A DNA stretch of 64,000 nucleotides from Eledone cirrhosa (Eukaryota): the NCBI GenBank assembly GCA_964016885.1, contig OZ024741.1, forward strand, positions 325,996,001 through 326,060,000, written 5' to 3'. The position numbers were made by a program, and so were the translations under genes. A model generated the notes under the pieces. That model worked only from the letters and a program-made list of their open reading frames with translations, was not told where the DNA came from and did no database searches. Of the stretch, positions 34,611 through 61,887 are shown piece by piece (within the stretch, counting starts at the first letter, position 1; the number at the start of each line of letters is the position of its first letter).

Positions 34611-36450
34611 ACACATTAGAGAACCATGCAGAACAACTCCATCGCAGCTCTGTTGTTCGGCTGGCATCGTCTACGCGCGTGTTGCGCAAGTAGTGTGAAA
34701 CAATAAATTTCGACACTTCTTTGCACAGAGATAATATCCATAGGCGAAACTACAATTGTCACTGCTGGTGCAGCTCCTGCTTCGGCAGTCCAGGTCTGTA
34801 ATTCATTCACCCAGTGCCTGGCAGACAAAAATGTGCTGCCATAAAATGGGTGGTGAAACCTAACTTTGGTAACTTACTGACCCCGAGCAACGCCGAGCTT
34901 TTATGCTAGTACATTGATAAAAGAAACATTATATCTGGAATGTTCTATAATCCATCTAAAAACGTTCATTTACATACGCTTACTCATGAAGTCATAATAA
35001 TCATTGCTTAGATATATATGCATATATGCTTTAGGATATATATATATATATAGCTGTTTTCAATATCTGACAAGACAATATATGTAATCTTAAACACAGG
35101 CCCAACCACGCAGATATAGAGATCTGCATCTATCTATCTCTCCCCCACTCCCTCTATGTATTTATGCGTATACACAGACTCACACACACAAGCACTCACA
35201 CACACACATACACACATATATATATATTATCTGTGTGTGTGTGTGAGTATACATATATATGTGAGTGTATGTGCGCGAGTGTGTGCGTGTATATATGTAT
35301 ATATATATATTTATTAAAATAACAGATTAAAGTTTAATCAAAGAATCGCTGCTTTCACCCTTAACAGGATCTTCATATATATATATATGAATTTCTAAAA
35401 GACTCGATTCATTTATATGGCTTTGGTGCAGCGAGGTTATAGTGGTAGGTATTTGCAACGCAATGGAACTGAAAGCTAAGCCACGAGGTTGCAAAGCAAT
35501 CTCAATAGCCACACAGCCATGTCTGCCTCAGATAGTCGTTTGAAGATCTTATCCAACCCTAAAAAAATATTTCAAAGACGATCGTTCCAGTGGTTCAAAC
35601 AACAGAACAACCTGCACGTGAAATTGACATGCAAGTCACTCAGCTTTCCACACACGTATAACCTGAACGTAAACACAGAGTGATTCAGCATATCATTGTG
35701 TGTGTGAAAAATCTGGCCTTTTAATTCCCGATCATAATATCGTGGGTTCGATTCCTGGGCTGGTTTGTGTGATGGGTTCTTGAGCAAAGTACTTCATTTT
35801 CCGATGGTCCTGTACACTCAGCTGAAAATGAGCACCAACAGTATCTGGGGATTTAACGCTGCCAGGGGTAAGTCTTGAACTCTCAGCCGCTTAACGCAAC
35901 AGAAACCGAGGTAAGAACCGGCCTGACGAGCCTCAGAGCTCTAGAGATACAATTTTTAAAAACAATCCATCCATCTCAGATGCTTCTGAATTTCACAATT
36001 TCATTCACAAAACTTTGATCGACTATTGGCTATGGTAAATGACAATGGCCTAAGTTGCCATGCAGTGGGATTGAACCCGGTACCCGATGATTACGATGAA
36101 AACAACTACCATCATTCGACCATGTTACCTCCACAGGCCAAATTCTAACAACTAAATAAACTCCCAAATAGTGTCAAAACAAAACGAGAGAATTTAATAA
36201 GGCGAGTTAATCAAATGGAAAGGATCATTGGACAGGTTTTACGGGCCAAATCATCCGGCAGGAGACCCAGTGTTAAATACCGTGAAAGACTGATGAATAA
36301 CATTTCCATGAGCACGGCTGTCTCGCTTGGGTAGCTAGCCGGATCCATTGGAGACGGTTTCCTGTGACAGGATGCTCTAGAATGTGTGTTTGAAGACTCT
36401 GCCCCCACGGCCTTCTCAAGAATAAGTGGGCGAATAATAATAATAATAAT

Positions 36451-36634
36451 TGTTTCTACTTTTGGCACAAGGCCAGAAATTACTCCAGTGTATTACTGGC
36501 ACTTTATTTTATCGACCGCGTAAGGATGAAAGGCAAAGTTAACCTCGGCGGGATTTGAACTCAGAATGGAAAGAGCCGTAACTCTATGCGTCAAAGCATG
36601 GCGTCGGACCCTCTACCAATACTGCCAATCCACC
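36451..36634 (-). mobile_element. SINE, near full length
   Basis: Family match; tail runs into (AAT)n at 36433-36450. Confidence 0.9.
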
Positions 36635-36646
36635 ATTATATAATAA

Positions 36647-36830
36647 TGAATTGGCAGTATCGGTAGAGGGTCGGATGCCATGCTTTCCAGCATAGTTACG
36701 TCCCTTAACGATCTGAGTTCAAATCCCGCTGAGGTTGACTTTGCCTTTCATCCTTACGGGGTCGATAAAATAAAGTACCAGTAATGCACTGGGTAATTGC
36801 TGGCCTTGTGCCAAAAAGTAGAAACAATTA
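36647..36830 (+). mobile_element. SINE, near full length, head-to-head with the previous copy
   Basis: TGGCAGTATCGG A-box, GAGTTCAAATCC B-box, tail CCTTGTGCCAAAAAGTAGAAACAATTAT. Confidence 0.9.
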
Positions 36831-36845
36831 TATAATAATAATAAA

Positions 36846-37373
36846 GACGGTGAATTGGCAGTATCGGTAGAGGGTTGGACGCCATGCTTTCTAGCATAGT
36901 TACGTTCCTTTACGGTCTGAGTTCAAATCCAGTCGAGGTTAACTTTGCCTTTCATCCTTATGGGGTCGATAAACACAATAGGCCTGACCTGGTGGTTTTG
37001 GACAAGGAAAAAAGATCGTGCCTAATTGTAGATGTAGCCTGCCCATTTGACACGAGAGTGCAAGAAAAGGAGAGTGAGAAAATTAACCGATACCAGGATT
37101 TAAAGTGGGAGTTAAAAAGGATTTTGAACTGCCATGAAATCAAGGTCGTCCCGATTGTCATAGGCGCACTAGGTACTATCTCAAAGAGTTTCCAAGGATG
37201 GTTAAAGAAGAATAGTCCAGCCCCGCTTTTTGGAACACTTCAAAAAGCATGCTTGCTGGGAACAGCAAGAATCCTCCGATACGTCCTGAATATCTGAGGC
37301 TGCAGATAGCGGCTTGATATTCATTTCAACAAACAATCCAATTAAATAACATCAATGACTGAGGCTCAAAGAA
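36846..37373 (+). mobile_element. Chimera: SINE 5' part (36846-36972) joined to the 3' end of an R4/Dong LINE (36973-37373)
   Basis: SINE sequence up to GGGGTCGATAAA, then HNRPDLVVLDKEKRSCLIVDVACPFD...RYVLNI and 3' UTR collinear with 38805-39202; (AAT)n tail. Confidence 0.88.
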
Positions 37374-37374
37374 C

Positions 37375-37426
<52 letters not shown>

Positions 37427-39202
37427 GGATCACCAAAAGCCTGGAGATCTTCAGGGTGGCAGATAACATCAGACAGTTGCTAGGCAGGAGTATGGGGTCC
37501 TGGGAGACAGAGTTGACATCAACTGGAGTATCCTTGGGAAGCGTGAAGATCAAGAGAGGTATCTTCCAGGGAGATAGCCTGTCCCCTCTGTTGTTTGTCC
37601 TTGCCCTGATGCCCTTGACCATTATGCTGCGAAAAGTGAGAGCAGGATACAAGTTGGGAAGGGGAGAGCTTACCATCAATCACCTCCTCTTCATGGACGA
37701 TCTTAAGCTCTTCGGGAAAAGTGAGAAGGAGTTGGATGTGCTTGTTGACACTGTCCGTATTTTCAGCAGTGATATATGTATGCAGTTTGGTATTGGTAAA
37801 TGTGGAGTCATTGTGATGAAGAGGGGTAGGTTGAGCAGAAGTAACGGGATCCAGATACCAACAGGTGAGATGATAAAGGAAATTGACTCTGAGGAAGGAT
37901 ACAAGTATTTGGGCGTTCTGGAGGCTGATGGCATAAAGAACAAAAAAATGAAGGAATTGTTAAGAACTGAATACATTCGGAGAGTAAGGAGCGTATTGAA
38001 GTCACATCTGAACAGCAGAAATGCCATAAGCGCAGTAAATTCCCGAGCTGTGTCTATTATTAGGTACAGTGCGGGAATTCTGAGATGGAATGTTGCTGAA
38101 CAAAAAGAAATGGATAGGAAGACTAGGAAGCTATTGACTATCTACAACATGTTCCACAAGAGGAGTGATGTCGATAGACTCTACCTAAGGAGATCTGAGG
38201 GTGGAAGAGGTCTTATCAGCATAGAGGACTGTGTTCAGATGGAGAAAAACAACCTATACAAATACGTGACCTATAGTAAGGAGCCAATGCTCAGAACTGT
38301 ACTGAAGGAGGGGACAGTAGGCCAGGGGATGTCCAAGGAGCAAATAACATCAAGGAGGAAGAGCAGCCTTAGGGGAAAATCCCTTCATAGTACCTTCTTT
38401 GAGAAAACTGAATTTAGAGATCCACAGACATGGAACTGGTTGAGAAGAGGAGACCTCAAAAAGGCTACAGAAGGAATGCTAATGGCTGCGCAGGAGCAGG
38501 CCCTCAAAACGAAGTGGTTGAAGCACCATATCTACAAGGAGGAGGCTAGCCCACTGTGCAGGATCTGTGGAGAGAGAGAGGAGACTGTGGCTCACATTGT
38601 GTCCGAGTGTAAACACCTAGCCCAGACCCACTATAAGGGCTGGAGACACGATGTGATGGGCAGGGTGATCCACTGGCACCTGTGCAAAGTAAACAATTTA
38701 CCACATTCTGAGAAATGGTATGAGCATAGGCCAGAGGCGGTGATGGAGAACAATCAGGTGAAGGTGCTGTGGGATTTTAGGATACAGACGGACAAAAAAC
38801 TGGAACACAATAGACCTGACCTGGTGGTTGTGGACAAAGAAAAAAGATCGTGCCTGATTGTGGATGTGGCCTGCCCGTTCGACACGAGAGTGCAAGAGAA
38901 GGAGAGGGAGAAAATTAACCGATACCAGGACCTAAAGTGGGAGGTGAAAAGGATTTGGAACTGCCATGAAGTCAAAGTGATCCCGATTGTCATAGGCGCA
39001 CTGGGGACTATCTCCAAAAGTTTCCAGGGATGGTTAAAGAAAATCGGCCCCTTCACGCTTTTTGGAACGCTTCAAAAGGCATGCTTGCTTGGAACAGCAA
39101 GAACCCTCCGATACGTCCTGAATATCTGAGGCTGCATGTAGTGGCATGATATTCAATCCAACGGACTTTCCAGTTAACCAACATCAATGACTGAGATTCA
39201 AG
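37427..39202 (+). mobile_element. R4/Dong-clade non-LTR retrotransposon, family A, 5'-truncated, in (AAT)n
   Basis: RT, CCHC and restriction-like endonuclease domains; (AAT)n on both sides, as known for Dong/Rex6 TAA-targeting elements. Confidence 0.9.
37456..39129 (+). CDS. R4/Dong polyprotein C-terminal part (RT, CCHC, RLE); uninterrupted but N-terminally truncated
   Basis: GIFQGDSLSPLLF, HLLFMDDLKLF, YKYLG, CRICGEREETVAHIVSEC, RPDLVVVD..IVDVACPFD..EKINRY. Confidence 0.85.
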   Translation: MADNIRQLLGRSMGSWETELTSTGVSLGSVKIKRGIFQGDSLSPLLFVLALMPLTIMLRKVRAGYKLGRGELTINHLLFMDDLKLFGKSEKELDVLVDTVRIFSSDICMQFGIGKCGVIVMKRGRLSRSNGIQIPTGEMIKEIDSEEGYKYLGVLEADGIKNKKMKELLRTEYIRRVRSVLKSHLNSRNAISAVNSRAVSIIRYSAGILRWNVAEQKEMDRKTRKLLTIYNMFHKRSDVDRLYLRRSEGGRGLISIEDCVQMEKNNLYKYVTYSKEPMLRTVLKEGTVGQGMSKEQITSRRKSSLRGKSLHSTFFEKTEFRDPQTWNWLRRGDLKKATEGMLMAAQEQALKTKWLKHHIYKEEASPLCRICGEREETVAHIVSECKHLAQTHYKGWRHDVMGRVIHWHLCKVNNLPHSEKWYEHRPEAVMENNQVKVLWDFRIQTDKKLEHNRPDLVVVDKEKRSCLIVDVACPFDTRVQEKEREKINRYQDLKWEVKRIWNCHEVKVIPIVIGALGTISKSFQGWLKKIGPFTLFGTLQKACLLGTARTLRYVLNI

Positions 39203-39494
39203 GAATAACAACAACAATAATAATAATAATAATAATAATGTTTTCTTTATTAACCACAAGGGTTTACATAAAGTAGACATTAAGGACAGTACAGGACAAT
39301 ACAGGACGGTACAAATAGGCATTTCTGCGTGTAAAAAAACAAAAAAAAAACAGAGGGTGTAACAAAAAATAACAATGAAAAATTCCCAATAGGGGGGAGA
39401 CTTCGGAGGGGCATTTGTGGAGAAAGCCCAGTAATAAGCCACAATGACCCTGACCACCAAGGCAAGTGCCCTCTCCCAGTTTTCCACCTTTAAT

Positions 39495-42400
39495 TTACAG
39501 ATATATACTCAGAGTAGGCCCATTCACTCGGGCCATTCTTGCTTCTCTCACCCATCTTTCAACAAAATGCTGGGAAGAGAGCACTTCCCTCTCTACTCTG
39601 ATTTTCCTTTTCAAATGAAATTTGAAAAAGTCAATCAGAGCATCACCGAAGAGGTAAGTGCTCGTCTTCAGCCCTTTCAAACGTGTCCACCATACTATCT
39701 CTTTCGCCATGGCCACCAGACAGATAAAAACTGCCTGCCCTTCCCGGCTAAAGGAGGAGGGCGGGCCAATCCTCACGATGGACTCAGATGATAGCCGGAT
39801 CCGTCCTAAACGCGACAGCAGGTGTTCGACATAAACCCACAAGTCAGCAATTTTCGGACACTGGACGAGTGCGTGCAGGACGGTTTCGTCGCCCTGTGCG
39901 CATCTCGGACATGCCCGGCTGACGGCACCTCTATGCCTGTAGAGATTATCCCGAACTGGCAAGGCTCATCGGTAGCACTGCCAGGCCAGAGATTTCTGGA
40001 AGTTGTCCATAGGCCCTGGCCCGAAAGTTCTTCCGAAGAGATTGGCTAGTTGATTTTCGTCGACGCCTAGAGTTTCCCCAAGTACGTCGTCGCTCTTCCC
40101 CTCCACTAATCCTCTATAGAACGCCGAGGTGGAGTTTCCACCGATCACATTGCCCGATTGGTCGAGGGCTGTGAGCGCCTGAAGACATTCCAGTCTCCAG
40201 ACGCTCCCTCTCGGTCTTGGCTTGACCCAGGACTGCAGCTCCGTGAAGTAAACGAGCTGGGGAAATACGCGTCTAGCAAACGGCGACCACACCTGATCAC
40301 CGTCGAGGAAGAGGTGGAGATGTCGTAGCCTGAGCGCGTGCCTGCGCATCATCAGCCACGGCATGCCCAGCCCTCCACGTAGCGGGTGTTGACAACAGAT
40401 GGACCGCCTGACCATCGGAGCGCGTCCCTTCCACAAAAAGCGAAAGAGCAAGCGCTCCAGCGCAGCCAGGCGAGGCTTAGGACAAGGTACGACGGTCAGG
40501 CGGTAGCAGATGACAGACGCGATGTACGCGTTAGCCACCTCCGCTCGACCTTTCAGGGATAGCTTCCTCTCCGCCCATTTCTGGGTGAGAGAAGCCACCC
40601 TGCTCGTCACCTCGTCCCAGTTTTTGTCCGTCTGGAGGTCCGGACCGAACGAGACCCCTAGCAATTTAACCGGTCCGTCCGTCCAGCGTCCGACGACGCT
40701 GTTGGACGGCATGGACCTGCCTCTCCAGGTGCCGAGCTGCAGGCCCACTGACTTTTCCTGGTTGATCATTGCTCCTGTCACCGCTTCGTATTCTCTTAGT
40801 GTAGTGCCGATCGCCTCGATGTGTTTGGCGTTCGACACCACTATGGTGACATCGTCCGAATATGCTGACACGGATCTTCCGCATCCTAGTTCGCGCGGGA
40901 CGCCCCTCAACGTCTCCAGTTCGTGCAGTAATGGCTCGAGAGTCAATACTTACAATAGGGACGAGAGGGGACATCCTTGGCGGACCGAGCGCATGATGTT
41001 GAACGGTTCCGACAGGTGACCGTTCACTCTCACCACAGAGCAGATGTCGCTGTGCATGGCAGCGATCCAGCCTCTGAAGACGGGCCCAAAGCCAGCCGCC
41101 CTCAGGACTGCCGCTAGGTAACGATGGTCGACCCTATCGAAAGCTTTCGACTGATCTAAATTGATCAAGGACCCACCAGTGCCAGGTTCCTTAGCTACCC
41201 ACTCTACGATGTATCGCATGAGGTGGAGGTTGTCGTGGATGGATCTGTCGGGAATGGCGCATGTCTGCGCCTCTCCTACCAGACCACCAACGACAAGCGC
41301 CAACCTCTTTGCTAGCACCTTGGCCAAAATCTTGAAATCTGTGTTTAGCAGAGTTATGGGCCGGAAATTATCTATGTTATCCCCCTTGTTCGGATCCTTT
41401 CTCAGCAGTGCCACCGCTCCTCGGCTCACAGAACTGGGAATTCTCCCGTTCTGTTGCCAGTTGCAGTAGACGTCCGCCAAGAGGCCTCCGAACAAGTCTG
41501 GCATCTGTACGTAAAGTTCATAGGGCAGACCATCCAAACCAGGCGATTTACCCCTTGTGCAGCCAGTCATTGCCTCCCTTACTTCAGCGGCTGTTATCGG
41601 CTTTTCGTAACACCTCGCCTCAGTGGGCGAGAGCCGCGGCTGTCAGTCGAGGTAGACACTAAAGTCCATCCCTCGACCCGGCTCACCGCTGCCCCCGAAC
41701 AGCTGAGCGAAGTGTCGCTGAAAAGCTTCACACATTTGCCCGGGATCGAGTAGCATGCGCCCGTCGTGGTCCACCAAAGACCGGATCGTGGCTTTGTTGC
41801 CACGATGCGCCTCCGCCACTCGGGCCCATTGAACGGCTTTCGTCCCCTCGTGTCTGAGAGCACGCACCCTTGCTCTGACAACGCAGCCTTCGTGCTTTGC
41901 ATTGAAGAATTGGTCAAGGGCCAATTTCGCCGCAAACACGTCGGTCGCAATGCCTTTGCTAAGCGCCTCGTCTAATTTTCTAACTAGTTCTCCCTCTGCT
42001 CTATTTTTCTCTATTGCTAAAGCCTTACTAAACCTAACGGATTCTATTCTAATCGCTCTTTTCAGAGCAAACCACCACTTGTTGTTGACGATGGACTCGT
42101 CAACGCCCGCTTAACTAGTTCGCTAATCCGGTCTCTGTAGGCCTTGCGCGCTGGTAAGGACGCGTTTAGCTTCCAGTAGCCGGGTCCTCGTCTATGAAGC
42201 CTATCTAAGTCAAGCACACAGATCACGAATTTGTGGTCCGTGTAGCTGACTATCTTGAATTGTGGACAGCCTATGCTAGACCTATCTATTTCCCTACAAA
42301 ATACTCTATCTAGATATGATCTGGATGACCCTATGCGATTTGTCCAAGTCCACATTGGCGCATTCGGGAAATCCAATCGGTACCTGTCAGACAGTTCAAA

Positions 42401-42910
42401 ACGCCTGAGCAGGTTGGTGAGGCTCTTGCACCCTCCACCCATATCCGCTAATCCCACACAGTCCCAGCGTGCATCTAAGATCCCGTTCCAGTCGCCCACT
42501 AACACTAAGCGGGACGTTCCAAGAAAGGTCTCCAGACGCCGAAAGAAATCAGGCCGCCCTGCTCCTGTCGGGGCATAGACGGCCACTAGCCTGAAAGCTT
42601 GCCCGTCTCCGCTGGTCACGTCCAGCACCACCAGCTTACCCTCTGGGTCCAGGAAGATGGCCCGTATGGCGAGATCCAAACCTCTCCGAAAAAGCACAGC
42701 AACTCCTCCCCCCGATCCAGGACGGCTGGGAGATGCGTACACATCGTAGCTGCCGAAGATCGGTGCAAAGGCCCGTGCTTCGGAGATTCTGGTCTCGCTG
42801 ATGGCCACTACATCTATGTTTAGTGACCTGAGGTCGTTGAGCAGGTGACCCTGCTTCCATGACGACCTCAAGCCACGCGCATTTATGCTGCCTATTCTGA
42901 GTGAGGTCAT
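39495..42910 (-). pseudogene. Tx1 ORF2 (APE endonuclease, RT, C-terminal zinc motif), disrupted
   Basis: MTSLRIGSINARGL, VGDWN, SYLDR, YTDH, GYWKLN, KSPGLDGLPYE, FRPITLLN, DQSKAFDRV, RQGCPLS, AYSDD, CPRC..ETVLHALVQC; several frameshifts and stops. Confidence 0.92.
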
Positions 42911-42945
42911 GTTTAAAATAGAGTGGAAAAGATGGGAAAGACCAC

Positions 42946-45048
42946 TTACCGTACTTTTGGTAGAGGAGGGATGGTTTTTACATCTCTTTTCACTTGATCG
43001 TCTGTTGAATCGTCCCTTCGGCTGGTCGTCGGCTCTTCTAAGAGAATGTCTGAATATACTCTTCGCTTGATAGTTCCTCCGAGGTCCCTGAAATCACCAA
43101 CTCCGTTGGGGAATTTCGTTTTAATGTTTGTGTATTGTTTCTGTGCTATTTTTAGCAGTCTTCTGTTAGTTGGCGTTTTGATTGGTGCTGGTATTATGTA
43201 GTCGTGTTGTGAAATGTATGTGTGTTCAATTATGTAAGTCATTAGTTTCTTGTTGTGTGTATTTATTGCCGTGCATTTGTTTTTCTCGGGGTGGGGTGTG
43301 GTTCTGCTATTTTCTTGTCGTTGTTGCTGGGTGTGTGTGTTTTGTTGTTGTGTTTGCGATGTTGGTGCTTGTGGTGGTGGTGTTGAAGGTGTTGTTGGCG
43401 GTTGGGTTGTCGCCGGTGGTGATGGTGGTGCTAGTGTGGGTGGTGATGGTGTTGGTGGTGTTGCTGCTGTGGGTCTCTTTGCAGTAGACTTTACCCTTTT
43501 CTCATTTCTTTCCTCCCTTTTCAAAGGCGACGATGCGCTGCTTCTGCGTTTGTACCTTCTTACGACCTTTTGCCATCTCTCTCCCACCTCACACTCCATG
43601 TCTGATTCTGTGAGGTCGGGGAAGGGTACCAGCTCCACTCTTTCACTTGTTGTTGTTGGTGATGTTTGCACTGGAGTCTCTGTTGCAGATGCATTTGGTA
43701 TTGCTGTTGTTGTTGTTAATATTTCCACTGCTGCTGCTGTTTTTGATTTCCGTGGCGTGGGTATGGGTGCGACGGACCTATCGTTCCTGGTTGCCGCTTG
43801 TCCTGTTGCTGGTAGCCGTGGAGCCGGTTTCGGAAGGAGGGGGGTTTCTCCTTTCTCAGGGTCTTCTCGTTGCAGAAGGCCCTGAGGTGAGTCTTCGATC
43901 CACAGCGAAAGCATTTCGGGCGTTTTCCCTCAACACTTATGGGCAGTTGAGTGCCGTTATCGAAGTCTATCAAATCCGGGATAGCTTCGATGCACTCCTG
44001 GTTGGTTTGGATTAGCATCTCAATGGAGGTGCCGACCCAATTTTCTCTTACTTTTTTCTGTACTTGCAGTACAGTTGTTTTGTCCTCGATTCCGACGAGG
44101 ACAGACGCGGCCAGCCAAGAAGGGGCCATCCCGGGGGGGGGGGGGGGCGTGGGTCGGTTTGACCCTCACAAATTTTTGCCCGCAGTAGGAGGGCACCAAC
44201 ACCATTTCCTCGCTCCTTAGGGTCACTACAGATTGGGCCTTTGCCTCCTGGGGTGTCGCAAAAAGTTCGTCTACGGTGGCATATTTTTTTCCTCGGGTGA
44301 TGTGCGTTTTCCGCTGCCACACAGACCCCAAGGCTTTTTGTATTTGAGCCTCTGTGGCTCTTTCCACCCTACGGGATTTTGTACTTACTGTACGGTACGT
44401 GACCGTACAGTGATGTTGGGTTTCGAAAGATTTTTCCGCTGCCTTGCAGATTGCTCGGTGTCCAGTTTTTGTCACCATCTTCTTCGCTTCCTCTAATTCC
44501 TCATTTGTTATGAGGATTGTTTCCAGGTTCTTCGCGATACCTGCAAATGAGATTGGTTTTTCTTTGCTGCTGTTGTTGTTGTTGTTTTCGTCAGAGCTGC
44601 TGTTACTTTTGTTGTTGCTGCAGGTACTACGACTACTGCCGCCGCCGCTGTTGCTGTGGTTGTTGTTGTTGTTGTTGCTGCTGCTAATGCTGTTGTTGTT
44701 TATGCTGCTGGTGATGCTGTTGCGGCTGCTACTGTTGTTTTCATTGTCACTGTTGCTGTTGTTATTACGGCTGCTACTGCTATTATTCCTGACGTCAGAC
44801 GAATGAACTGGGTTTTCGTATTTCCCGCACACCCGTTTCGTCGCTGTCGTCGTCGTCGTGGAGAAACCTTGCACGCTTTGCACGAGACTTTTCTTTTCTT
44901 TCGTCGCTTGCGAAAGAGAAGGGAGGGAGAGAGACACATTTAAAGAAGGGAGGGAGAGAGACAATCTTCTCTCTGCTGTAGTGATGATTGAGGAAGAAGA
45001 AGACGGAATGAGTGGGAGTGACCTATGCAAATTCTTTTTCGTAGCCAT
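42946..45048 (-). pseudogene. Tx1 ORF1 (N/S-rich N-terminus, CCHC knuckle, P/T-rich tail), frameshifted
   Basis: ORFs 44020-45048, 43716-44129 and 42946-43914; CFRCGSKTHLRAFC. Confidence 0.85.
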
Positions 45049-45278
45049 GTTGGTTTTTTAAAAAAAATAAATATTGGGTACAAAACCCCAATAAGCAGTT
45101 ATTTAACCCCGAAGGGCCAAATAACCGGCAGAAAGACGCCTCTCACGAGGAGGAGGGTGTTTTTGTCTACAAGTTGGTCTAAGTTTTAAACAATTAACAA
45201 TTGTTATAGCGTTCAAAATTTACAGTACCTTACAGAGCCGAGCCTCCGTCAACCATAGCATTCAATAATAATAATAAC

Positions 45279-45331
<53 letters not shown>

Positions 45332-45332
<1 letters not shown>

Positions 45333-49500: not shown

Positions 49501-50364
49501 AATCCTGATGTTGACAAAACTTTAACCCATCAGTGGTTGGCATCCTCTGGACTGAAATCGGAGACTGAAGGACTGATTATATCAGCACAAGATCAGTGTC
49601 TGCCAACAAAAAATTACCAAGCCAGCATAATAAAAAATGGGTGCAGCCCATTATGCCGTGTATGCAAAAAACAACCAGAGACCATTGACCATATAATTTC
49701 AATGTGCAGTCCTATAGCTCCAACCGAATACCTAAACAGGCATGACAGAGCTGCACAATACATACATTGGATAATGTGTAAGCATTTTGACCTGCCCCAT
49801 CAAAAGAAGTGGTGGGAGCATCAACCACCTCCCATACTTGAAAAAGATCACATCTCAATCTTGTGGAACTTTAGCATCCAAACAGACCGAAAAATAGATG
49901 CAAATAGACCTGATATAATATTGAAGGACTTTCAAAAGAGGGTATGCCTGCTAATTGATATGTCTGTTCCAAAAGACAAGAATATATCTATAAAAACATT
50001 TGAAAAATTGAGCAAGTATAAGGACCTGGAGATAGAAATTGGAAAAATGTGGAAATTGAGAACTAAAACAATACCAGTGGTTGTAGGCGCTCTGGGAATG
50101 ATACCTAAGGGGTCTAATGATTACTTATCGCAAATTCCAGGAAACCAGCGTATAGGAGAAACACAAAAGATAGTACTAATGGGAACTGCACATATACTAA
50201 GGAAGATTCTGTCAATATAAGTACATCACAAGTCTAAACACTAAAGATGCATGTGTCAATATGAATGTTCTTTCTTGAACATGGCGGACCTTGTTGTCTC
50301 TTGAGGTCACTGGTTGTGACTTGGTGATAACTCGTATGAACATAAAGCAAGATAAATGCAACTG
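46505..50364 (+). mobile_element. Apparently full-length R4/Dong-clade element, family B
   Basis: GC-rich 5' UTR, single long ORF with RT, CCHC and RLE, 3' UTR and (TAA)n tail at 50365-50386. Confidence 0.9.
46686..50220 (+). pseudogene. R4/Dong polyprotein, one frameshift (A-run ~48988-48994) and an in-frame deletion
   Basis: WKSPGKDKIQNFW, NYRPITCL, WIDYKKAFDSLPH, GIFQGD, FYMDDLKLF, YKYLG, CRVC..ETIDHIISMC, RPDIILKD..LIDMSVP..EKLSKY. Confidence 0.9.
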
Positions 50365-50636
50365 TAATAATAATAATAATAATAATGATTTCTTTATTAA
50401 GCACAAGGTTTTACATAAAGTAGACATTAAGGACAGTGCAGGACAATACAGGACGGTACAAATGGGCATTTCTGCGTGTAAAAAACAAAAACAGAGGATG
50501 TAACAAAAAAATAACAATAAAAAATTCCCCAATAGGGGGAGACTTCGGAGGGACATTTGTGGAGAAAGCCCAGTAAAAGGCCACAGTGACCCTGACCACC
50601 AAGGCAAGTGCCCTCTCCCAGTTTTCCACCTTTAAT

Positions 50637-53600
50637 TTACAGATATATACTCAGATTAGGCCCATTCACTCGGGCCATTCTTGCTTCTCTCACCCATCTT
50701 TCAACAAAATGCTGGGAAGAGAGCACGTCCCTCTCTACTCTGATTTTCCTTTTCAAATTTCATTTGAAAAAATCAATCAGAGCATCACCGAAGAGGTAAG
50801 TGCTCGTCTTCAGCCCTTTCAAACGTGTCCACCATACTATCTCTTTCGCCATGGCCACCAGACAGATAAAAACTGCCTGCCCTTCCCGGCAAAAGGAGGA
50901 GGGCGGGGCAATCCTCACGATGGACTCCGATGGTAGCCGGATCCGTCCTACACGCGACAGCAGGTGTTCGACATAAACCCACAAGTCAACAATTTTCGGA
51001 CACTGGACGAGTGCGTGCAGGACGGTTTCGTCGCCCTGCGCGCATCTCGGACATGCCCGGCTGATGGCACCTCCATGCCTGTATAGTTTATCCCGAACAG
51101 GCAAGCCTCCTCGGTAGCACTGCCAGGCCAGAGATTTCTGGAAGTTGTCCATAGGCCCTGGCCCCAAAGTTCTTCCGAAGAGATTGGCTAGTTGATTTTC
51201 GTCGACGCCTAGAGTTTCCCCAAGTACGTCGTCGCTCTTCCCCTCCACTAATCCTCTATAGAACGCCGAGGTGGAGTTTCCACCGATCACATTGCCCGAT
51301 TTATCGAGGGCTGTGAGCGCCTGAAGACATTCCAGTCTCCAGGCGCTACCTCTCGGTCTTCGCTTGACCCAGGACTGCAGCTCCGTGAAGGAAACGAGCT
51401 GGGGAAATACGTGTCTAGCAAACGGCGACCACACCTGATCACCGTCGAGGAAGAGGTGGAGATGTCGTAGCCTGAGCGCGTGCCTGCGAATCATCAGCCA
51501 CGGCATGCCCAGCCCTCCACGTAGCGGGTGTTGACAACAGATGGACCGCCTGACCATCGGAGCGCGTCCCTTCCACAAAAAGCGAAAGAGCAGACGCTCC
51601 AGCGCAGTCAGGCGAGGCTTAGGACAAGGTACGACGGTCAGGCGGTAGCAGATGACAGACGCGATGTACGCGTTAGCCACCTCCGCTCGACCTTTCAGGG
51701 ATAGCTTCCTCTCCGCCCATTTCTGGGTGAGAGAAGCCACCCTGCTCGTCACCGCGTCCCAGTTTTTGTCCGTCTGGAGGTCCGGACCGAACCAGACCCC
51801 TAGCAATTTAACCGGTCCGTCTGTCCAGCGTCCGACGACGCTGTTGGACGGCATGGTCCTGCCTCTCCAGGTGCCGAGCTGCAGGCCCACAGACTTTTCC
51901 TGGTTGATCATTGCTCCTGTCACCGCTTCGTATTCTCTTAGTGTAGTGCCGATCACCTCGATGTGTTTGGCGTTCGACACCACTACGGTGACATCGTCCG
52001 CATAAGCTGACACGGATCTTCCGCATCCTAGTTCGCGCGGGACGCCCCTCAACGTCTCCAGTTTGTGCAGTAATGGCTCGAGAGTCAATACTTACAAGAG
52101 GGACGAGAGGGGACATCCTTGGCGGACCGAGCGCATGATGTTGAACGGTTCCGACAGGTGACCGTTCACTCTCACCACAGAGCAGATGTCGCTGTGCATG
52201 GCAGCGATCCAGCCTCTGAAGACGGGCCCAAAGCCAGCCGCCCTCAGGACTGCCGCTAGGTAACGATGGTCGACCCTATCGAAAGCTTTCGACTGATCTA
52301 AATTGATCAAGGACCCACTCGTGCCAGGTTCCCTAGCTACCCTCTCTACGATGTATCGCATGAGGTGGAGGTTGTCGTGGATGGATCTGTCGGGAATGGT
52401 GCATGTCTGCGACTCTCCCACCAGACCACCAACGACAAACGCCAACCTCTTTGCTAGCACCTTGGCCAAAATGTTGAACTCTGCGTTTAGCAGAGTTATG
52501 GGCCGGAAATTATCTATGTTATCCCCCTTGTTCGGATCCTTTCTCAGCAGTGCCACCGCTCCTCGGCTCACAGAACTGGGAATTCTCCCGTTCTGTTGCC
52601 AGTTGCAGTAGACGTCCGCCAAGAGGCCTCCGAACAAGTCTGGCATCTGTACGTAAAGTTCATAGGCAGACCATCCAAACCAGGCGATTTACCCCTTGTG
52701 CAGCCAGTCATTACCTCCCTTACTTCAGCGGCTGTTATCGGCTTTACGCAACACCTAGCCTCAGTGGCCGAGAGCCGCGGCAGTCCGTCGAGGTAGACAC
52801 TAAAGTCCATCCCTCGACCCGGCCCACCGCTGCCCCCGAACAGCTGAGCGAAGTGTCGCTGAAAAGCTTCACACATTTGCCCGGGATCGAGTAGCATGCG
52901 CCCGTCGTGGTCCACCAAAGACCGGATCGTGGATTTGTTGCCATGATGCGCCTCCGCCACTCGGGCCCATTGAACGGCTTTCGTCCCCTCGTGTCTGAGA
53001 GCACGCACCCTTGCTTTGACAACGCAGCCTTCGTGCTTTGCATTGAAGAATTGGTCAAGGGCCAATTTTGCCGCAAGCACGTCGGTCGCAATGCCTTTGC
53101 TAAGCGCCTCGTCTAATTTTCTAACTAGTTCTCCCTCTGCTCTATTTTTCTCTATTGCTAAAGCCTTACTAAACCTAATGGATTCTATTCTAATCGCTCT
53201 TTTCAGAGCAAACCACCACTTGTTGTTGACGATGGCCCCTGTCAACTCCCGCGTAACTAGTTCGCTAATCCGGTCTCTGTAGGCCTTGCGCGCTGGTAAG
53301 GACGCGTTTAGCTTCCAGTAGCCGGGTCCTCGTCTATGAAGCCTATCTAAGTCAAGCACACAGATCACGAATTTGTGGTCCGTGTAGCTGACTATCTTGA
53401 ATTGTGGACAGCCTATGCTAGACCTATCTATTTCCCTACAAAATACTCTATCTAGATATGAGCTGGATGACCTTATGCGATTTGTCCAAGTCCACATTGG
53501 CACATTCGGGAAATCCAATCGGTACCTGTCAGACAGTTCAAAACGCCTGAGCAGGTTGGTGAGGCTCTTGCACCCCCCCACCCCTATCCGCTAATCCCAC

Positions 53601-54056
53601 ACAGTCCCAGCGTGCATCTAAGATCCCGTTCCAGTCGCCCACTAACACTAAAGAGCGGGACGTTCCAAGAAAGGTCTCCAGACGCTGGAAGAAATCAGGC
53701 CGCCCTGCTCCTGTCGGGGCATAGACGGCCACTAGCCTGAAAGCTTGCCCGTCTCCGCTGGTCACGTCCAGCACCACCAACTTACCCTCTGGGTCCAGGA
53801 AGATGGCCCGTATGGCGAGATCCAAACCTCTCCGAAAAAGCACAGCAACTTCTTCCCCCAAACCAAGTCGGCTGGAAGATGCGTACACATCGTAGCCGCC
53901 AAAGATCGGTGCGAAGGCCCGTGCTTCGGAGATTCTGGTCTCGCTGATGGCCACTACATCTATGTTTAGTGACCTGAGGTCGTTGAGCAGGTGACCCTGC
54001 CTCCATGACGACCCCAAGCCACGCGCATTTATGCTGCCTATTCTGAGTGAGGTCAT
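50637..54056 (-). pseudogene. Tx1 ORF2 copy 2 (APE-RT-Zn), disrupted
   Basis: ORFs 53538-54056, 52568-53581, 52092-52646 and 50760-52088; AYADD intact. Confidence 0.92.
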
Positions 54057-54091
54057 GTTTAAAATAGAGTGGAAAAGATGGGAAAGACCAC

Positions 54092-56191
54092 TTACCGTAC
54101 TGTTGGTAGAGGAGGGATGGTTTTTCCATCCCTTTTCACTTGATCATCTGGTGAAGGGACCATTGAATCGTCCCTTCGGCTGGTCGTCGGCTCTTCTATG
54201 AGTATGTCCGAATATACTCTTCGCTTGATAGTTCCTCCTAGGTCTCTGAAATCACCAACTGCGTTGGGGAATTTCTTTTTAATGTTTGTGTATTGTTTCT
54301 GTGCTATTTTTAGCAGTCTTATGTTAGTTGGCGTTTTGATTGGTGCTGGTATTATGTAGTCGTGTTGTGAAATGTCTGTGTGTTCAATTATGTAAGTCAT
54401 TAGTTTCTTGTTGTGTGTATTTATTGCCGTGCATTTGTTTTTATGGGGGTGGGGTGTGGTTCTGTTATTTTCTTGTCGTTGTTGCTGGGTGTGTGTGTTT
54501 TGTTGTTGTGTTTGCGATGTTGGTGCTTGTGGTGGTGGTGTTGAAGGTGTCGTTGGCGGTGGGGTTGTCGCCGGTGGTGATGGTGGTGCTAGTGTGGGTG
54601 GTGATGGTGTTGGTAGTGTTGCTGCTGTGAGTCTCTTTGCAGTAGACTTTACCCTTTTTTCATTTCTTTCCTCCCTTTTCAAAGGCGACGATGCGCTGCT
54701 TCTGCGTTTGTGCCTTCTTACGACCTTTTGCCATCCCTCTCCCACCTCACACTCCATGTCTGATTCTGTGAGGTCGGGGAGGGGTACTAGCTCCACTCTT
54801 TCACTTGTTGTTGTTGGTGATGTTTGCACTGGAGTCTCTGTTGCAGCTGCATTTGGTATTGCTGTTGTTGTTGTTAATACTTCCACTGCTGCTGCTGTTT
54901 TTGATTTCCGTGGCGTGGGTATGGGTGCGACGGACCTATCGTTCCTGGTTACCGCTTGTCCTGTTGTTGGTAGCCGTGGAGCCGGTTTCGAAAGGAGGGG
55001 GGTTTTCTCCTTTCTCAGGGTCTTCTCGTTGCAGAAGGCCCTGAGGTGAGTCTTCGATCCACAGCGAAAGCATTTCGAGCGTTTTCCCTCAACACTTATG
55101 GGCAGTTGAGTGCCGTTATCGAAGTGTATTACATCCGGGATAGCTTCGATGCACTCCTGGTTGGTTTGGATTAACATCTCAATGGAGGTGCCGACCCAAT
55201 CTTCTCTTACTTTTTTCTGTACTTGCAGTACAGTTGTTTTGTCCTCGATTCCGACGAGGACAGACGCGGCCAGCCAAGAAGGGGCCATCCCGGGGGGGGG
55301 GGGACAGTTTGACCCTCACAATTTTATGCCCGCAGTAGGAGGGCACCAACACCATTTCTTCGCTCCTTAGGGTCACTACGGATTTAACCCTTGCTTCCTG
55401 GGGTGTCGCAAAAAGTACGTCTACGGTGGCATATTTTTTGCCTCGGGTGATGTGCGTTTTTCGCTGCCACACAGACCCCAAGGCTTTTTGTATTTGAGCC
55501 TCTGTGGCTCTTTCAACCCTACGGGATTTTGTACTTACTGTACGGTACGTGACCGTACAGTGATGTTGGGTTTCGAAAGATTTTTCCGCTGCCTTGCAGA
55601 TTGCTCGGTGTCCAGTTTTTGTCACCATCTTCTTCGCTTCCTCTAATTCCTCATTTGTTATGAGGATTGTTTCCAGGTTCTTCGCGATACCTGCAAATGA
55701 GATTGGTTTTTCTTTGCTGCTGTTGTTGTTGTTGTTTTCGTCAGAGCTGCTGTTACTTTTGTTGTTGCTGCAGGTACTACGACTACTGCCGCCGCCGCTG
55801 TTGCTGTGGTTGTTGTTGTTGTTGTTGCTGCTGCTAATGCTGTTGTTGTTTATGCTGCTGCTGATGCTGTTGCGGCTACTACTGTTGTTTTCATTGTCAC
55901 TGTTGCTGTTGTTATTACGGCTGCTACTGCTATTATTCCTGACGTCAGACGAATAAAATGAGTTTTCGTATTTCCCGCACACCTGTTTCGTCGTTGTCGT
56001 CGTGGAGAAATCTTGCACGCTTTGCACGAGACTTTTCTTTTCTGTCGTCGCTTGCGAAAGAGAAGGGAGGGAGAGAGACACATTTATAGAAGGGAGGGAG
56101 AGACACAATCTTCTCTCTGCTGTAGTGACGATTGAGGAAGAAGAAGACGGAATGAGTGGGAGTGACCTATGAAATTCTTTTTCGTAGCCAT
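54092..56191 (-). pseudogene. Tx1 ORF1 copy 2, frameshifted
   Basis: ORFs 55179-56108 and 54092-55288; CFRCGSKTHLRAFC. Confidence 0.85.
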
Positions 56192-56406
56192 GTTGTTTTT
56201 TTGTTTAAAATAAATATTGGGCACAAAACCCCAATAAGCAGTTATTTAACCCCGACGGGCCAAATAACGTGCAGAAAGACCCCTCTCACGAGGAGGAGGT
56301 TGTTTTTGTCTACAAGTTGGTTAAAGTTTTAAACAATTTACAATTGTTATAGCCGTCAAAATTTACAATACCTTACAGAGCCGAGCCTCCGTCAACCATA
56401 GCATTC

Positions 56407-56436
<30 letters not shown>

Positions 56437-56437
<1 letters not shown>

Positions 56438-59400
56438 GTTTCTTTATTGGCCACAAGGGCTAACAGGAAAAAAACATTAGAGACGGCACAGAACAGTACA
56501 GGACGATACAAAGTGAGTTTTTGTCGTGTAAACAGGTTACAACAAAAATTCAAATAAAAGGGGGAACCACCGAGGGTCACTCGTGGCGAAAACCACACAA
56601 AAAGACCACGGCCACACTGACCACCAGGGCAAGCGCCCTCTCTCAGTTCTCCCACTCCTTTGTCTCAGGCGCATACTCAGAGCGGGCCCGTTCACTCGGA
56701 CCAGACGCACCACTTTCACCTACCTTTCAACGAACTTACTAGAAGACAGCACTTGCTTCTTCACCCTGATTTTCCTCTTCAAGTGAAACTTGAAAAAGTT
56801 AATCAGGGATTGGCCAAAGAGGAAAGTCTCAGTCTTTAACCCTTTCAACCTTGTCCACCACACAATTTCTTTCGCCATGGCCACCAGGCAGATGAAAACT
56901 GACTGCCCTTCCTCCTCTTTAAAGGAGGGTGACGGGGCTATCTGCACAATGGACTCAGTCGATAACCGGATCCGTACTACACACGCCAGCAGCTATTCGA
57001 CATAGCTCCACAAGTCAGCAATCCTCGGGCACTGAACGAGTGCATACAGGACGGTTTCGTCGCCCTTCGCGCATCTCGGACAGGCTCGGCTGACAGCACC
57101 TCCGTGCCTATAGAGCTTATCCCGAACCGGCAACGCACCCCGATAGCACTGCTAGGCCAGGGATTTCTGGAAGTTGTCCATAGGCCCCGGTATAAAAGTT
57201 CTTTTGAAGAGAGCGAACAGCTGATAGTCTTCGACAACCAGGGTCTCCCCGAGAACGTCGTCGCTCTTCCCTCCACTAGCCCTCTATAGAACGCCGAGGT
57301 GGATATTCCACTGATACTAGTGCCCAGCTGGTAGAGGGTAGTGAGCGCCTGGAGACATTCCAGCTTCCAAGCGTTATCCCTCCGTCTTTTCCTGATCCAG
57401 GACTGCAGCTCCCTCAAGGAGACGAGCTGGGGAAAAGCGCGTCTGGCAAACGCCGACCACACCTGTTCACCGGCAAAGAAGCATCAGAGATGTCGCAGCC
57501 TCAGCGCATGTTTGCACATCATCAGCCACGGCATGCCTAGTCCTCCACGCAACGGATGTTGACAGCAAATGGATTGTCTGACCATGGGAGCACGTCCTTT
57601 CCACAAAAAGCGGAAGAGAAGGTGCTCCATTTTTGTCAGAGTTGGGCGAGGGCAAGGTACGACGGCCAGGCGGTAGTAGATGACGGACGCGATGTACGCA
57701 TTCGCCACCTCCGCCCGACCTTTCAGAGACAGCCTCCTCTCGGCCCATGTCTGGAAGATTGGTGCGAAGGCTCGTGCTTCGGAGATTCTGGTCTCGGTGA
57801 TGGCCATCACATCTATGTTTAGTAACCTGGGGTCGTTGACCAGGTGACTCTGCTTCCAAGATGACCCCAGGCCACGTACATTTATACTGAATATTCTAAG
57901 TACGGCCATGTTGGATGAGAAACGGGGCAAGTGTGAAAGGATCACTTACCTTGATCGTGTTGGGAAGAGACAGTAGAACCGTCACTTTGGCTGGTCATGG
58001 GTGTTTCCAAGATGATGTCAGTGTATTTCCTCTTGGTAAACGACCCTCTGAAGTCTCCAACTGTGTTGGGGATTTTTTCTTTTAAAAGTTTATAAAGATC
58101 TATTTTAATTTCAATGATGTTTATATTCTTCGGGAGAGTTGTTGGTATTGGTGGGGTGTAGTTTTTTTTTCTGTGATGTCTGTGTGTTGCTTTATATGTT
58201 GGAAGAGTTCTTTATTTGCCATGTTTATGGCTGTGTACTTTTTGGGGGGGAGGGGTGGTTTTGTTGCTGTTTTCTTGCTGTTGCTGTTGGGTGTGTGTGT
58301 GCTTTGTTGTGTTTGCGATGTTGGTGTTTTTAGTGATGCTGGTGGTGGTGTGGTTGTTGTTGGCGGTGATGCTTATGGTGGTGATGGTGATGGTGGTGGT
58401 GTTGCTGCAAGTCTCCTTGCAGCCTTTACCTCTCTTTGTTTGCCTTCGCTTTTGGACGGTGAAGCTAAGGGTTGTTTTCTTTTTTTTTTTTTTTGTTGCA
58501 GACCGTTTGTCACTTCCCTCCCGCCTCATACTAAATGTCGGATTCCGTGGCGTCTGGGAGGGGTATGAGCTCCACTACTGTTGGTGGTGGTAGCGAGCCC
58601 GCTCCGGCGATTTTGCCGCCGGTGTAGCTACTGCGACTGTTGGTGCTGCCACCACTGCTGGCGCTGTTTTAGTTGTCCGTAGCCTTGGTATGGGTGCCAC
58701 GGAAGTTGCCCTCCTACTCACCATGGAAGGGTCTTCTGCCTCTGTTGCCTGCCTTGCTCTTGGTAGCAGTGGATCAGACGTCGGAAGGAGGGGACCCTCT
58801 TCTTGGCTGTCTTCTGCTGGCAGAAGGCCCTGAGGTGACCCTTCTGCCCACAGAGATAGCACTTATAGGGAGTTGGAGTCCTTCCTCGAGGTCTATGATA
58901 TCTGGGATGGCTTCGAAGCACTACTGGTCAGTTTGTATTAGCATTTGCATGCCTATTCCTGACCATTTCTCTCTTTCCATTCTCTGTATTTGCAGTATGG
59001 TGGTCTTCTGCTCGATTTCAGCAAATACAGACGAGCCAGCTAAGGTATGGGCACGTCGGGCAGGACCTGGGTCACTTTGAACCTCACAATTTTCTGCCCA
59101 CAGTAGGAGGGCTTCAATACTATCTCCTCACTCTTTAGGGTTTCCAAAGAGTGAGACTTCGCCTCTTGAGGGGTGGCGAAAAGTACGTCTACTGTGGCGT
59201 ACTTTTTGCCTCGGGTGATGTGGGTTTTGCGCACCCTGACGCACGCCAAGGCCTTTTGGATTTGAACCTCCGTGGCTCTCTCCACCCGATGTGACATTTT
59301 GCTTACGGTGTGGTAACTCACCGTGCTCAGCTGCTGATCTTTGAATAAATCGGGTGGAGGTTTCAGGGAAACTCTATTGTCGTTTCTCGACACCATGGCT

Positions 59401-60166
59401 CTTGCGACTGCCATCTCCTCCTCCGTGACTAGCACTGTCTCTATTTTTCGGGCCACACCTGCGAAAGAAGTGGCCCTTTTTTCAGCGGCACCATTATTGC
59501 TGCCGCTATTGCTGCTACTGATCTTGTTGTTGGTGCTGTTGCTGTTGCTACAAACGGTGTTGTTGGTGCTGTTGCTGTTGCTACTGCTACAAACGGTGTT
59601 GTTGGTGTTGTTGCTGTTATCACTGTTGTAGTTGGTTGTCTTTTTGGTGCCACCGTTGTTGTTGTTTTTGGTGCAATTTGTATTGTTGCTGTTGGTGTTG
59701 TCGTTGTTTATTTTCTTGTTAGTGGTGTTAATATCGTTGTTGCATTTTGTTTTCATTTTTTTCTGTTGTCTGTATTTTGGTTGTCGCTGTTATTGTTGTA
59801 GTTGGTGTGGTAATTTTTTTAAATTAGTGTTCACAGTGTTGTTGTCTTTGTTCACGTTGTTTGTGGTGGTGTTTGTTGTATACATTTCTGTGACTCCCCC
59901 TCTCAACTTTTACGCCGTTGTCACACGACAGCAGAGATATTGCTGGGGGGGGGGGGGGCATGTTTTTTATTTTAATTTTTAAAAGTAAAATGTTCAAATA
60001 TTGTTCAAATATTTGGGCCAAAAGGCCCAAATATACTTTCCTCTTCACAGGGCAAAGTCCAAGGGCTTATATCCCTTACACAACAAGAAAAATTAAACAA
60101 CAAATAATTATAACAGGTAAATAAAGCGACTTACTGGGAGCGAGCAAAAAGACGTCCGAACAGACC
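56437..60166 (-). mobile_element. Tx1 LINE family B, internally deleted (most of APE and all of RT missing)
   Basis: ORF1 homolog (SFAGVARKIE..HITRGKKYATVDVLFATPQEA..CYLCGQKGHLRAFC); ORF2 reads ARAFAPIF|QTWAERRLSLKGRAEV; (AAT)n on both sides. Confidence 0.88.
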
Positions 60167-60174
60167 AATAATAA

Positions 60175-60355
60175 TTGTTTCTACTTTTGGCACAAGGCCA
60201 GCAATTACTCAGTGTATTACTGGTACTTTATTTTATCGACTCCGTAAGGATGAAAGGCAAAGTTAACCTCGGCGGGATTTGAACACAGATCATAAAGGGA
60301 CGTAACTCTATGCTTCAAAGCATGGTGTCCGACTCTCTACAGATACTGCCAATCC
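60175..60355 (-). mobile_element. SINE whose (ATT)n tail hosts Tx1 family B
   Basis: Family match; further fragment at ~60380-60432. Confidence 0.9.
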
Positions 60356-60724
60356 AATAATAATAATAATAGTTTCTATTAAATTGACCTCAGTGCATTA
60401 CTGGTGCTTTATTTTATCGACCCCGTAAGGATAATAATAACAAGTGTTAATTAAATGCAACAAGTTTATCACATCGAGAATCTAGAGTTAAATTGTGTTG
60501 TCACGTTATAATGATGAACATATGATAAGGTTAGATAAAGGTGGTTTGGTACCATCTATTTTTGGTTTTAATAGCATTGTAAACTTTGCCAAGCAAGCTT
60601 AGAGTGAAAACCTGAACAATAAATTAGCTCTGCAGCCATCATGCAGACAATGGCCAGTTTTCAATGCATTGTTCAATTATGTATATCAGTATAATATCTA
60701 TATAGGCACAGATATATGTATATG

Positions 60725-60797
<73 letters not shown>

Positions 60798-60802
<5 letters not shown>

Positions 60803-61870: not shown

Positions 61871-61887
61871 TATATATATATATATAT

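Follow-up and report, generated by a model that had tools for sequence, protein, structure and literature searches.

Layout of the nest

The 64-kb window of Eledone cirrhosa DNA analysed here (contig OZ024741.1) contains at 36433-60440, the region under study, a nest of long and short interspersed elements (LINEs and SINEs) that meet at AAT-type microsatellite tracts. Runs of at least four units number 10 for AAT and 0 for ATT inside the nest, compared with 2 and 1 in the remaining 40 kb. The 10 AAT runs are probably a single tract split by insertions and not independent, and therefore no p-value is claimed. The nest is continuous and contains no unique DNA. We posit that it grew by repeated insertion into one microsatellite, and that its SINE likely depends on the enzyme of the Tx1-type LINEs, with which it has a 3' hairpin in common.

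Along the plus strand, the nest begins with (AAT)6 (36433-36450), the 3' tail or target of a near full-length tRNA-type SINE on the minus strand in ATT polarity (36451-36634). A plus-strand SINE in AAT polarity follows (36648-36826), flanked by a 13-bp direct repeat, and then a plus-strand chimera of a SINE head and an R4-A-like 3' end (36844-37374). After (AAT)17 (37375-37425) comes R4-A, a 5'-truncated plus-strand element of the restriction-like endonuclease (RLE) type (37426-39204), whose tail is joined by an AAC/AAT tract (39205-39239) to the tail of Tx1-A1, a full-length, disrupted L1/Tx1-group element on the minus strand with open reading frames ORF1 and ORF2 (39240-45263). Beyond it lie (AAT)23 including one AAC (45264-45332), a full-length minus-strand SINE with 96.7% identity to the SINE at 36650 (45333-45519), and (TAA)6 (45520-45538), which is the 5' flank of this SINE and of R4-B alike, head to head. 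R4-B, probably full length (plus strand, 45539-50364), holds a plus-strand SINE 3' fragment (46390-46445) in its 5' untranslated region (UTR) and is connected tail to tail by (TAA)7 (50365-50387) with Tx1-A2, full length and disrupted (minus strand, 50388-56406). The head of Tx1-A2 is separated by (AAT)10 (56407-56436) from the tail of Tx1-B, a member of a second family with an internal deletion (minus strand, 56437-60166). At the right end, (AAT)3, a SINE (60176-60355) and (AAT)5 (together 60167-60370) are followed by a fragment of a second SINE subtype with (TAA)3, the right edge of the nest (60371-60440), both on the minus strand. Read on the minus strand, the order is thus SINE, Tx1-B, Tx1-A2, SINE, Tx1-A1, with the oppositely oriented R4-B between Tx1-A2 and the second SINE and R4-A after Tx1-A1.

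Re-examination of the sequence confirmed the element order, the strands and the (AAT)n junctions proposed in an earlier reading made from the letters alone (the sequence-only reading). It also upheld that R4-type elements read into (TAA)n, as seen at 3/3 3' ends, and Tx1-type elements into (ATT)n, all three of the latter being bordered on both sides by (ATT)n in their own orientation. The strand partitioning described there holds for the R4- and Tx1-type elements and is not strict for the SINEs, as the plus-strand SINE at 36648-36826 sits in AAT polarity. Tail-to-tail contact of R4 and Tx1 follows from their opposite polarity and does not call for a special module.

A domain scan detected a reverse transcriptase (RT) on both R4-A and R4-B. 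R4-A retains an open frame of 567 aa with the end of the RT, a CCHC motif and a PD..D nuclease, and 5/5 of its solved-structure matches are R2, the RT and nuclease stretch included. The single ORF with RT followed by CCHC and PD..D nuclease, and without an apurinic/apyrimidinic endonuclease (APE), is that of RLE-type non-long-terminal-repeat elements of the R2 group. The (TAA)n target and tail of R4/Dong elements are present at all three 3' ends, and the 5' flanks are (AAT)17 and (TAA)6. The clade labels used here, R4/Dong for the plus-strand and Tx1 for the minus-strand elements, are our assumption, the tree containing no named reference for either. The R4-B ORF (46686-50220) is frameshifted and shows 37-43% amino acid identity to R4-A. 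An HDV-like (hepatitis delta virus-like) 5' ribozyme at R4-B was found neither among Rfam matches nor with our own descriptor (0 matches), which lacked a positive control. In the chimera at 36844-37374, the SINE head extends to about 36973 and passes, across a 2-base overlap, into the terminal 400 bases of an element resembling R4-A (identity with R4-A 87% across 436 bases); the R4 enzyme likely switched templates here.

The sequence-only reading had placed a spacer of about 1 kb in front of R4-B. Four of 13 sequencing runs, whose organisms may differ from that of the window, were compared with 45545-60480; figures for run contigs are those of the best-supported matches listed, and repeats at the Tx1 ends were skipped in the read comparison. 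Depth over 45539-46500 in run X1 (20-31) is like that at the start of the R4-B ORF (31-36), and a 1505-base X1 contig with 15 differing letters spans 46203-47706, joining the supposed spacer to the ORF. Depth over this stretch in run X4 is about half that at the ORF start, and about 6100 restriction-site-associated DNA (RAD) molecules per run terminate at 45619. The stretch is therefore multi-copy, not a unique spacer, and most likely the R4-B 5' UTR of about 1.1 kb, beginning right after (TAA)6, with 45539-46203 assigned from depth only. The SINE fragment at 46390-46445 travels with R4-B, because it lies inside the bridging contig. R4-B differs from X1 contigs at 47/4070 bases and Tx1-A2 at 62/~2130; since R4-B is the closer of the two and the frame of R4-A is open, the R4 copies look younger than the Tx1 copies.

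The minus-strand LINEs carry ORF1 and an ORF2 with N-terminal APE, RT and C-terminal zinc finger (zf-RVT in the domain scan), which is the composition of the L1 group, and they are closest to human L1. Their relative P0001 scored 172-174 bits on L1 ORF2p vs 63-88 on R2. In a quick tree that raised long-branch warnings, Tx1-A of the window and P0001 adjoin the array-forming relatives described below (support 92). Tx1-A1 is disrupted by stops and frameshifts, and its alignment of 6000 bases with Tx1-A2 shows 188 differences. Both copies have an early TAA stop in the RT (52092-52094 in A2), at a position where P0001 has Tyr, and the two are thus not independent; dN/dS between their ORF2s is 0.85 (p 0.53 against 1), as under neutrality. 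They derive from one defective source or from a local duplication, and the module of R4, (AAT)n, Tx1 and SINE that the sequence-only reading counted twice can no longer be taken as two separate occurrences. Duplication of the whole module is ruled out, given that identity between the SINEs bounding the two modules is no higher than 89% and that the two R4 elements are as distant as stated above. Tx1-B shows 77% nucleotide identity to Tx1-A in the 3' part of ORF2 and 59-61% amino acid identity in ORF1, and its internal deletion of about 2.2 kb lies at 57754. Evidence for a target preference consists of 3/3 Tx1-type elements in (ATT)n at this locus only, the criterion of Kojima (2015) being over 20% of flanks.

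Several further observations concern the Tx1-type elements. In ORF1, both Tx1-A copies have a lengthened run of G at one and the same position (44130-44150, 55290-55303), which shifts the frame and is due to slippage or sequencing error. X1 depth reaches up to 12,600 on the Tx1 RT region (50525-54010) and stays below 100 on ORF1, which suggests that a related Tx1 family is much more abundant and a candidate main driver of the SINE. A decayed minus-strand ORF1 fragment at 5300-6670, 29% identical to the Tx1-B ORF1, represents a third Tx1-like family and ends at (TTC)20 (5240-5299), possibly reflecting a different microsatellite preference. No HDV-like ribozyme was found at the Tx1 5' ends, and viral contigs yielded 0 matches to the exact pattern of the Tx1 5' end and no P0001 homologues. 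An ARAGORN call of tRNA-Thr at 58547-58629 falls inside the Tx1-B ORF1 and was taken as chance.

The SINE is about 190 bp long, of high copy number (very high run depth) and without ORF, and A and B boxes could be recognized by eye against the general consensus, as in tRNA-derived SINEs; ARAGORN called no tRNA in it and Rfam gave no tRNA match. Rfam microRNA matches at 36550-36725 were below the gathering score and reflect two head-to-head SINEs. The 13-bp repeat (36635-36647, 36827-36839) brackets the plus-strand SINE at a switch from ATTAT to ATAAT and is likely a target-site duplication; the five-base ATTAT beside the tail of this SINE seems to have sufficed for insertion. In X4, 690 and 794 contigs run from the SINE 3' end into AAT-like sequence (agreement 0.42 and 0.38) and 191 contigs join SINE head to SINE tail, which suggests the same insertion behaviour of the SINE genome-wide. 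Past the SINE head, X11 and X12 show a plus-strand flank rich in A (agreement 0.47-0.48). The proposal that each insertion regenerates target fits both the sequence of the nest and the head-to-tail contigs of X4. The exact SINE-tail pattern had 0 matches in bacterial genome contigs.

A common 3' hairpin in the SINE and the Tx1-type elements

Nine SINE 3' ends were located in the window (chance mean 0.08). These nine and the three Tx1 ends contain an invariant CCTTGTG about 16 bases before (ATT)n, a common structure that adds to what the sequence-only reading described. For six SINE ends, the terminal 26 bases were compared with the LINE tails, with 5000 random 26-mers of the window as null. 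Similarity was significant for the tail of Tx1-B (p 0.0004-0.0018), Tx1-A1 (p 0.0014-0.022) and Tx1-A2 (p 0.002-0.017), as opposed to p 0.26-0.64 for the three R4 ends. The common sequence can form a hairpin with a CTTGT loop and with stems GGC/GCC in the SINE, ACC/GGT in Tx1-A1 (AACC-CTTGT-GGTT, loop from 39260 downward, then AATAAA) and GCC/GGC in Tx1-B (GCC-CTTGT-GGC). In total, 37 of 38 stem cells pair, two pairs are altered on both sides, and the covariation score was reached by 1/500 shuffles.

The SINE retains the hairpin but not AATAAA, as expected for an RNA polymerase III (Pol III) passenger recognized by ORF2p, and neither the Tx1-type elements nor the SINEs of the window have poly(A) tails. 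A common 3' terminal sequence with a stem-loop is one mark of a stringent LINE/SINE pair, the other being that retrotransposition depends on the stem-loop and that ORF2p binds it. Taken together with the same hairpin at the ends of distant relatives (see below), this suggests that the SINE likely rides on the L1/Tx1 lineage by stringent 3'-end recognition, and sequence comparison points to Tx1-type elements as the likely source of the enzyme that copies it.

A number of points weigh against this interpretation. The compensating changes amount to two events, and the count of double-change pairs was reached by 62/500 shuffles. The stem is only 3-5 bp long, with one mismatch in Tx1-A2, and the minimum-energy fold shows the hairpin in 4/9 ends (2/6 SINE, Tx1-A1, Tx1-B) and not in the other five. 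The similarity between SINE and Tx1 is confined to about 25 bases, and the loop-plus-stem pattern has 21 matches in the window, namely nine SINE tails, two Tx1 ends and 10 elsewhere. Among the LINEs of the genome, the tail comparison covered Tx1 and R4 ends. For the insertion model as a whole, one SINE (36648-36826) stands in the opposite polarity, the Tx1 flanks represent three copies at one locus of which two are not independent, and the organisms of the runs may not be that of the window.

Array-forming relatives and the mode of insertion

A profile search yielded 18 loci of relatives at 42-43% amino acid identity, on eukaryote-like contigs inside a bacterial metagenome-assembled genome (MAG) labelled Arenicella; these contigs are probably animal host DNA. 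Units of 6.4-6.9 kb, near-identical and with long ORF2 matches, stand head to tail there, with up to 13 units on one contig. GGC-CTYGT-GCC, followed by AATAAA 21-24 bases on, ends 33/33 scored units (3 of 36 were too short), and 15 contigs together have 62 occurrences of a 12-base pattern with the hairpin of the SINE (loop CTYGT), compared with one for the control. No poly(A) and no AAT or ATT runs of three units were found in the 18 loci. The 16-17-base sequence after AATAAA varies by subfamily, with 0-7/17 letters in common, and the seven subfamilies with those differing junctions have 93-96% identical APE domains. At 3/6 array left edges, the array's own junction sequence precedes the first unit (exactly over 16 bases, over 12 bases, and over 17 with mismatches), and one junction type was found on five contigs.

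These arrays indicate that (ATT)n is not the target of the lineage as a whole, that the 3' hairpin is lineage-wide, and that re-insertion beside itself is a habit of the lineage. As near-identical APE domains go with unrelated junctions, it may be the read-through tail of the RNA, and not the endonuclease alone, that conveys the preference for (ATT)n. The suggestion of the sequence-only reading that an RLE and an APE use opposite strands of one microsatellite fits the polarity of the elements, which, in view of the relatives, is by itself no proof that the APE reads (AAT)n. Against these deductions it must be held that overlapping loci in a single assembly, with about eight subfamilies, supplied the 33 units, that 3/6 array edges show no clear duplication (scores 4-6, not above those of foreign junctions), and that the junctions may partly be element ends.

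Other features of the relatives stand apart from this argument. The 15 contigs with L1/Tx1-group ends and AT/AC microsatellites lie among contigs C3-C19 of the MAG (G001; loci L031-L067). In several loci (L033:7167-7215, L049-L066), another hairpin stands between the CTYGT one and AATAAA; its stem varies but compensates fully, and neither the Tx1 nor the SINE of the window has it. In L067 (G001:C18:12500-13600), an unoccupied 16-base target persists beside an occupied one through a local duplication, a natural empty site. A metagenome scan gave 30 further loci at 23-38% identity, which are too distant, and no common flank repeat.

The opposite polarity of the elements, their domains, the hairpin sequence with its compensating stems and the lack of poly(A) are features of the DNA itself. 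To account for them, we propose repeated target-primed insertion into one microsatellite, with orientation set by pairing of the RNA tail and with the SINE borrowing the L1/Tx1 enzyme through the hairpin, a reading to which we assign a probability of about 0.6. The Tx1-type RNA would be cut shortly past AATAAA, within the donor (ATT)n flank, and so end in (AUU)n. This end would pair with the nicked (AAT)n strand and place Tx1 in ATT polarity, while an R4-type RNA ending in (UAA)n would prime on the other strand in the mirror reaction. ORF2p would recognize the CUYGU-loop hairpin, which the SINE would have kept while its AATAAA decayed. The target would be renewed, because each insertion would leave tract on both sides. 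In the simplest history, Tx1-B, A2 and A1 formed a head-to-tail array first, with the SINE and R4-B later entering the A2/A1 junction and R4-A entering beyond A1. A1 and A2 could go back to one defective source through one donor copied twice in trans, insertion of one concatemer, or local duplication.

The last of these routes, duplication at the DNA level of one dead copy by unequal exchange between AAT tracts, would mean that part of the stack did not arise by retrotransposition, and we regard it as possible, with the odds somewhat against it. It is favored by the common RT stop and the neutral divergence, by the changes found where eight relatives are uniform (219 columns), 11 of them common and 4 and 6 private, with many maybe family-level, by the C that both copies have at 55407 where the entire depth in four runs is G, and by Tx1-A2 being equally far from X1 contigs (62) and from A1 (65). 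However, the duplicated unit would be exactly the element, the SINEs at the module ends have diverged as noted, and the T that both copies have at 53012, where 6-17% of the X4/X11 family depth departs from the majority A, is compatible with a minor subfamily. Hard-wired nucleases that would confine nicking by the Tx1 APE to the (AAT)n strand and nicking by the R4 RLE to the (TTA)n strand, as in TRAS1/SART1, appear an unlikely sole cause and may act together with tail pairing. Endonuclease swaps are reported to shift target choice between SART1 and TRAS1 (PMC7265360), Kibi, Koshi and crocodilian Tx1 families target microsatellites (PMC4494074), two distinct Tx1 families of the window are both in (ATT)n, and the window APE, just 38-46% identical to that of the relatives, may have specialized. 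Neither the unrelated junctions beside near-identical APEs of the relatives nor the SINE inserted in opposite polarity at the ATTAT/ATAAT switch with its 13-bp duplication would be expected of such nucleases.

That the SINE is moved by another LINE (RTE, L2 or a third Tx1 family), or that the hairpin acts in 3' processing instead of being recognized by ORF2p, seems improbable to us. Most known SINE tails are described as coming from CR1/L2 or RTE (PMC3747384), cephalopod Ceph-SINEs have RTE tails (PMC5786205), and the GGC/GCC stem of the SINE is closer to that of the distant relatives than to those of Tx1-A or B. Yet APE elements of this lineage terminate in exactly the hairpin that the SINE carries, SINE and Tx1 are alike in polarity and (ATT)n ends, and the SINE retained the hairpin without AATAAA. 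A passive pile-up in a gene-poor region, or a mis-joining of repeats, without any targeting is very improbable: the window is repeat-rich, X4 lacks private letters of R4-B at a number of positions and there is no single record covering the stretch, but the junctions lie in AAT-type tracts with fixed polarity, the 13-bp duplication is clean, and an artefact by collapse is unlikely because the copies differ by 3-13%.

Proceeding from repeated target-primed insertion, we put forward one extension as conjecture and consider it quite unlikely. An L1/Tx1 lineage without fixed DNA target, recognizing its RNA by a CUYGU hairpin and using about 16 donor-flank bases as guide ("target memory"), would be a natural RNA-programmed target-primed integrase, which would build arrays in one host and here would lock the lineage and an abundant hairpin-bearing SINE into (ATT)n.

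Outside the nest, a plus-strand 5'-truncated fragment at 10130-10900, presumably CR1/L2-like, stands directly after (CAT)14 (CTT)28 (TAA)3. ORF pieces at 17893-18791 and 29506-30723 presumably represent GIY-YIG and RT regions of Penelope-like type. A 416-base direct repeat of 98% identity borders the nest closely on its right side (60794-61209 and 61421-61836), and further short duplications and inversions occur at 2360-2960, 8520-8770 and 61880-62960.

Comparison with known systems

The use of opposite strands of one repeat (TRAS/SART) and the presence of Dong in (TAA)n are already known, and the stacking itself is of modest interest. What the nest adds to this is a likely stringent SINE/L1-Tx1 pair, a pairing rarely reported for the L1/Tx1 group, together with a hint of RNA-carried target choice. 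A literature search returned no (ATT)n-targeting Tx1, no octopus SINE with a Tx1 tail and no Tx1 arrays with read-through tails, although Repbase, subscription papers and supplements may hold such cases. If the pairing is true, it adds an animal case to the L1-group elements that recognize 3' ends stringently, bears on whether the poly(A)-only recognition of mammalian L1 is a derived loss (PMC3472496), and names the likely driver of a SINE present in great abundance. SINEs are reported to make up 11.6% of the Octopus vulgaris genome and to be mostly unclassified among recent insertions, and in this species Dong-R4 is abundant and Dong-R4 and L1-Tx1 were recently active (PMC13282606). Should the RNA tail determine target choice, programmable insertion could be tested directly with the element. 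Such nests could also account for transposable element (TE) hotspots and the growth of AAT tracts.

Dong of the R4 clade, described from Bombyx, Anopheles and Biomphalaria, is an RLE element in (TAA)n with a (TAA)n tail (PMC3812793; PMC3774820), a target and tail also present in the R4 elements of the window. It differs from R4-B, which has a 5' UTR of about 1.1 kb holding a SINE fragment and in which the HDV-like ribozyme was not found with a descriptor lacking a positive control. TRAS1 and SART1 likewise are two elements on one repeat, inserted in opposite directions into (TTAGG)n, and annealing of tail and target has been proposed for SART1 and R1Bm (PMC7265360); however, both are R1-clade APE elements on telomeres, whereas the nest combines RLE and APE elements on an interstitial microsatellite. 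Like Kibi on (TC)n, Koshi on (TTC)n and crocodilian Tx1 families on (TTCC)n or (TTTC)n (PMC4494074), the Tx1-type elements of the window are L1/Tx1-group APE-RT elements in simple repeats. Unlike these, whose listed targets are pyrimidine repeats and do not include (ATT)n, they lack poly(A) and have a conserved 3' hairpin.

Crocodilian SINEU, whose tandem SINEU-3 insertions sandwich a target-site duplication, was likely moved by Tx1 (PMC4494074), and the SINEU/Tx1-Mar pair with its common target resembles what we propose for the window SINE. SINEU differs, though, in its snRNA heads and its tails of poly(A), and its link to Tx1 is described from the target and common 5' heads, not from a common 3' structure. 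Recognition of a stem-loop is established for L2 elements, namely ZfL2 and UnaL2/UnaSINE (PMC4176376), and a survey from 2012 listed L1-clade tails in only three SINEs, of maize and Chlamydomonas (PMC3472496; PMC3747384). ZfL2, UnaL2/UnaSINE, LINE1-1_ZM/ZmSINE2-3 and L1-1_CR/SINEX-3 have a short 3' stem-loop with a conserved loop and a variable stem, as does the proposed pair in the window, which unlike the plant and algal SINEs with L1 tails would belong to an animal L1/Tx1 group and carry a CUYGU loop.

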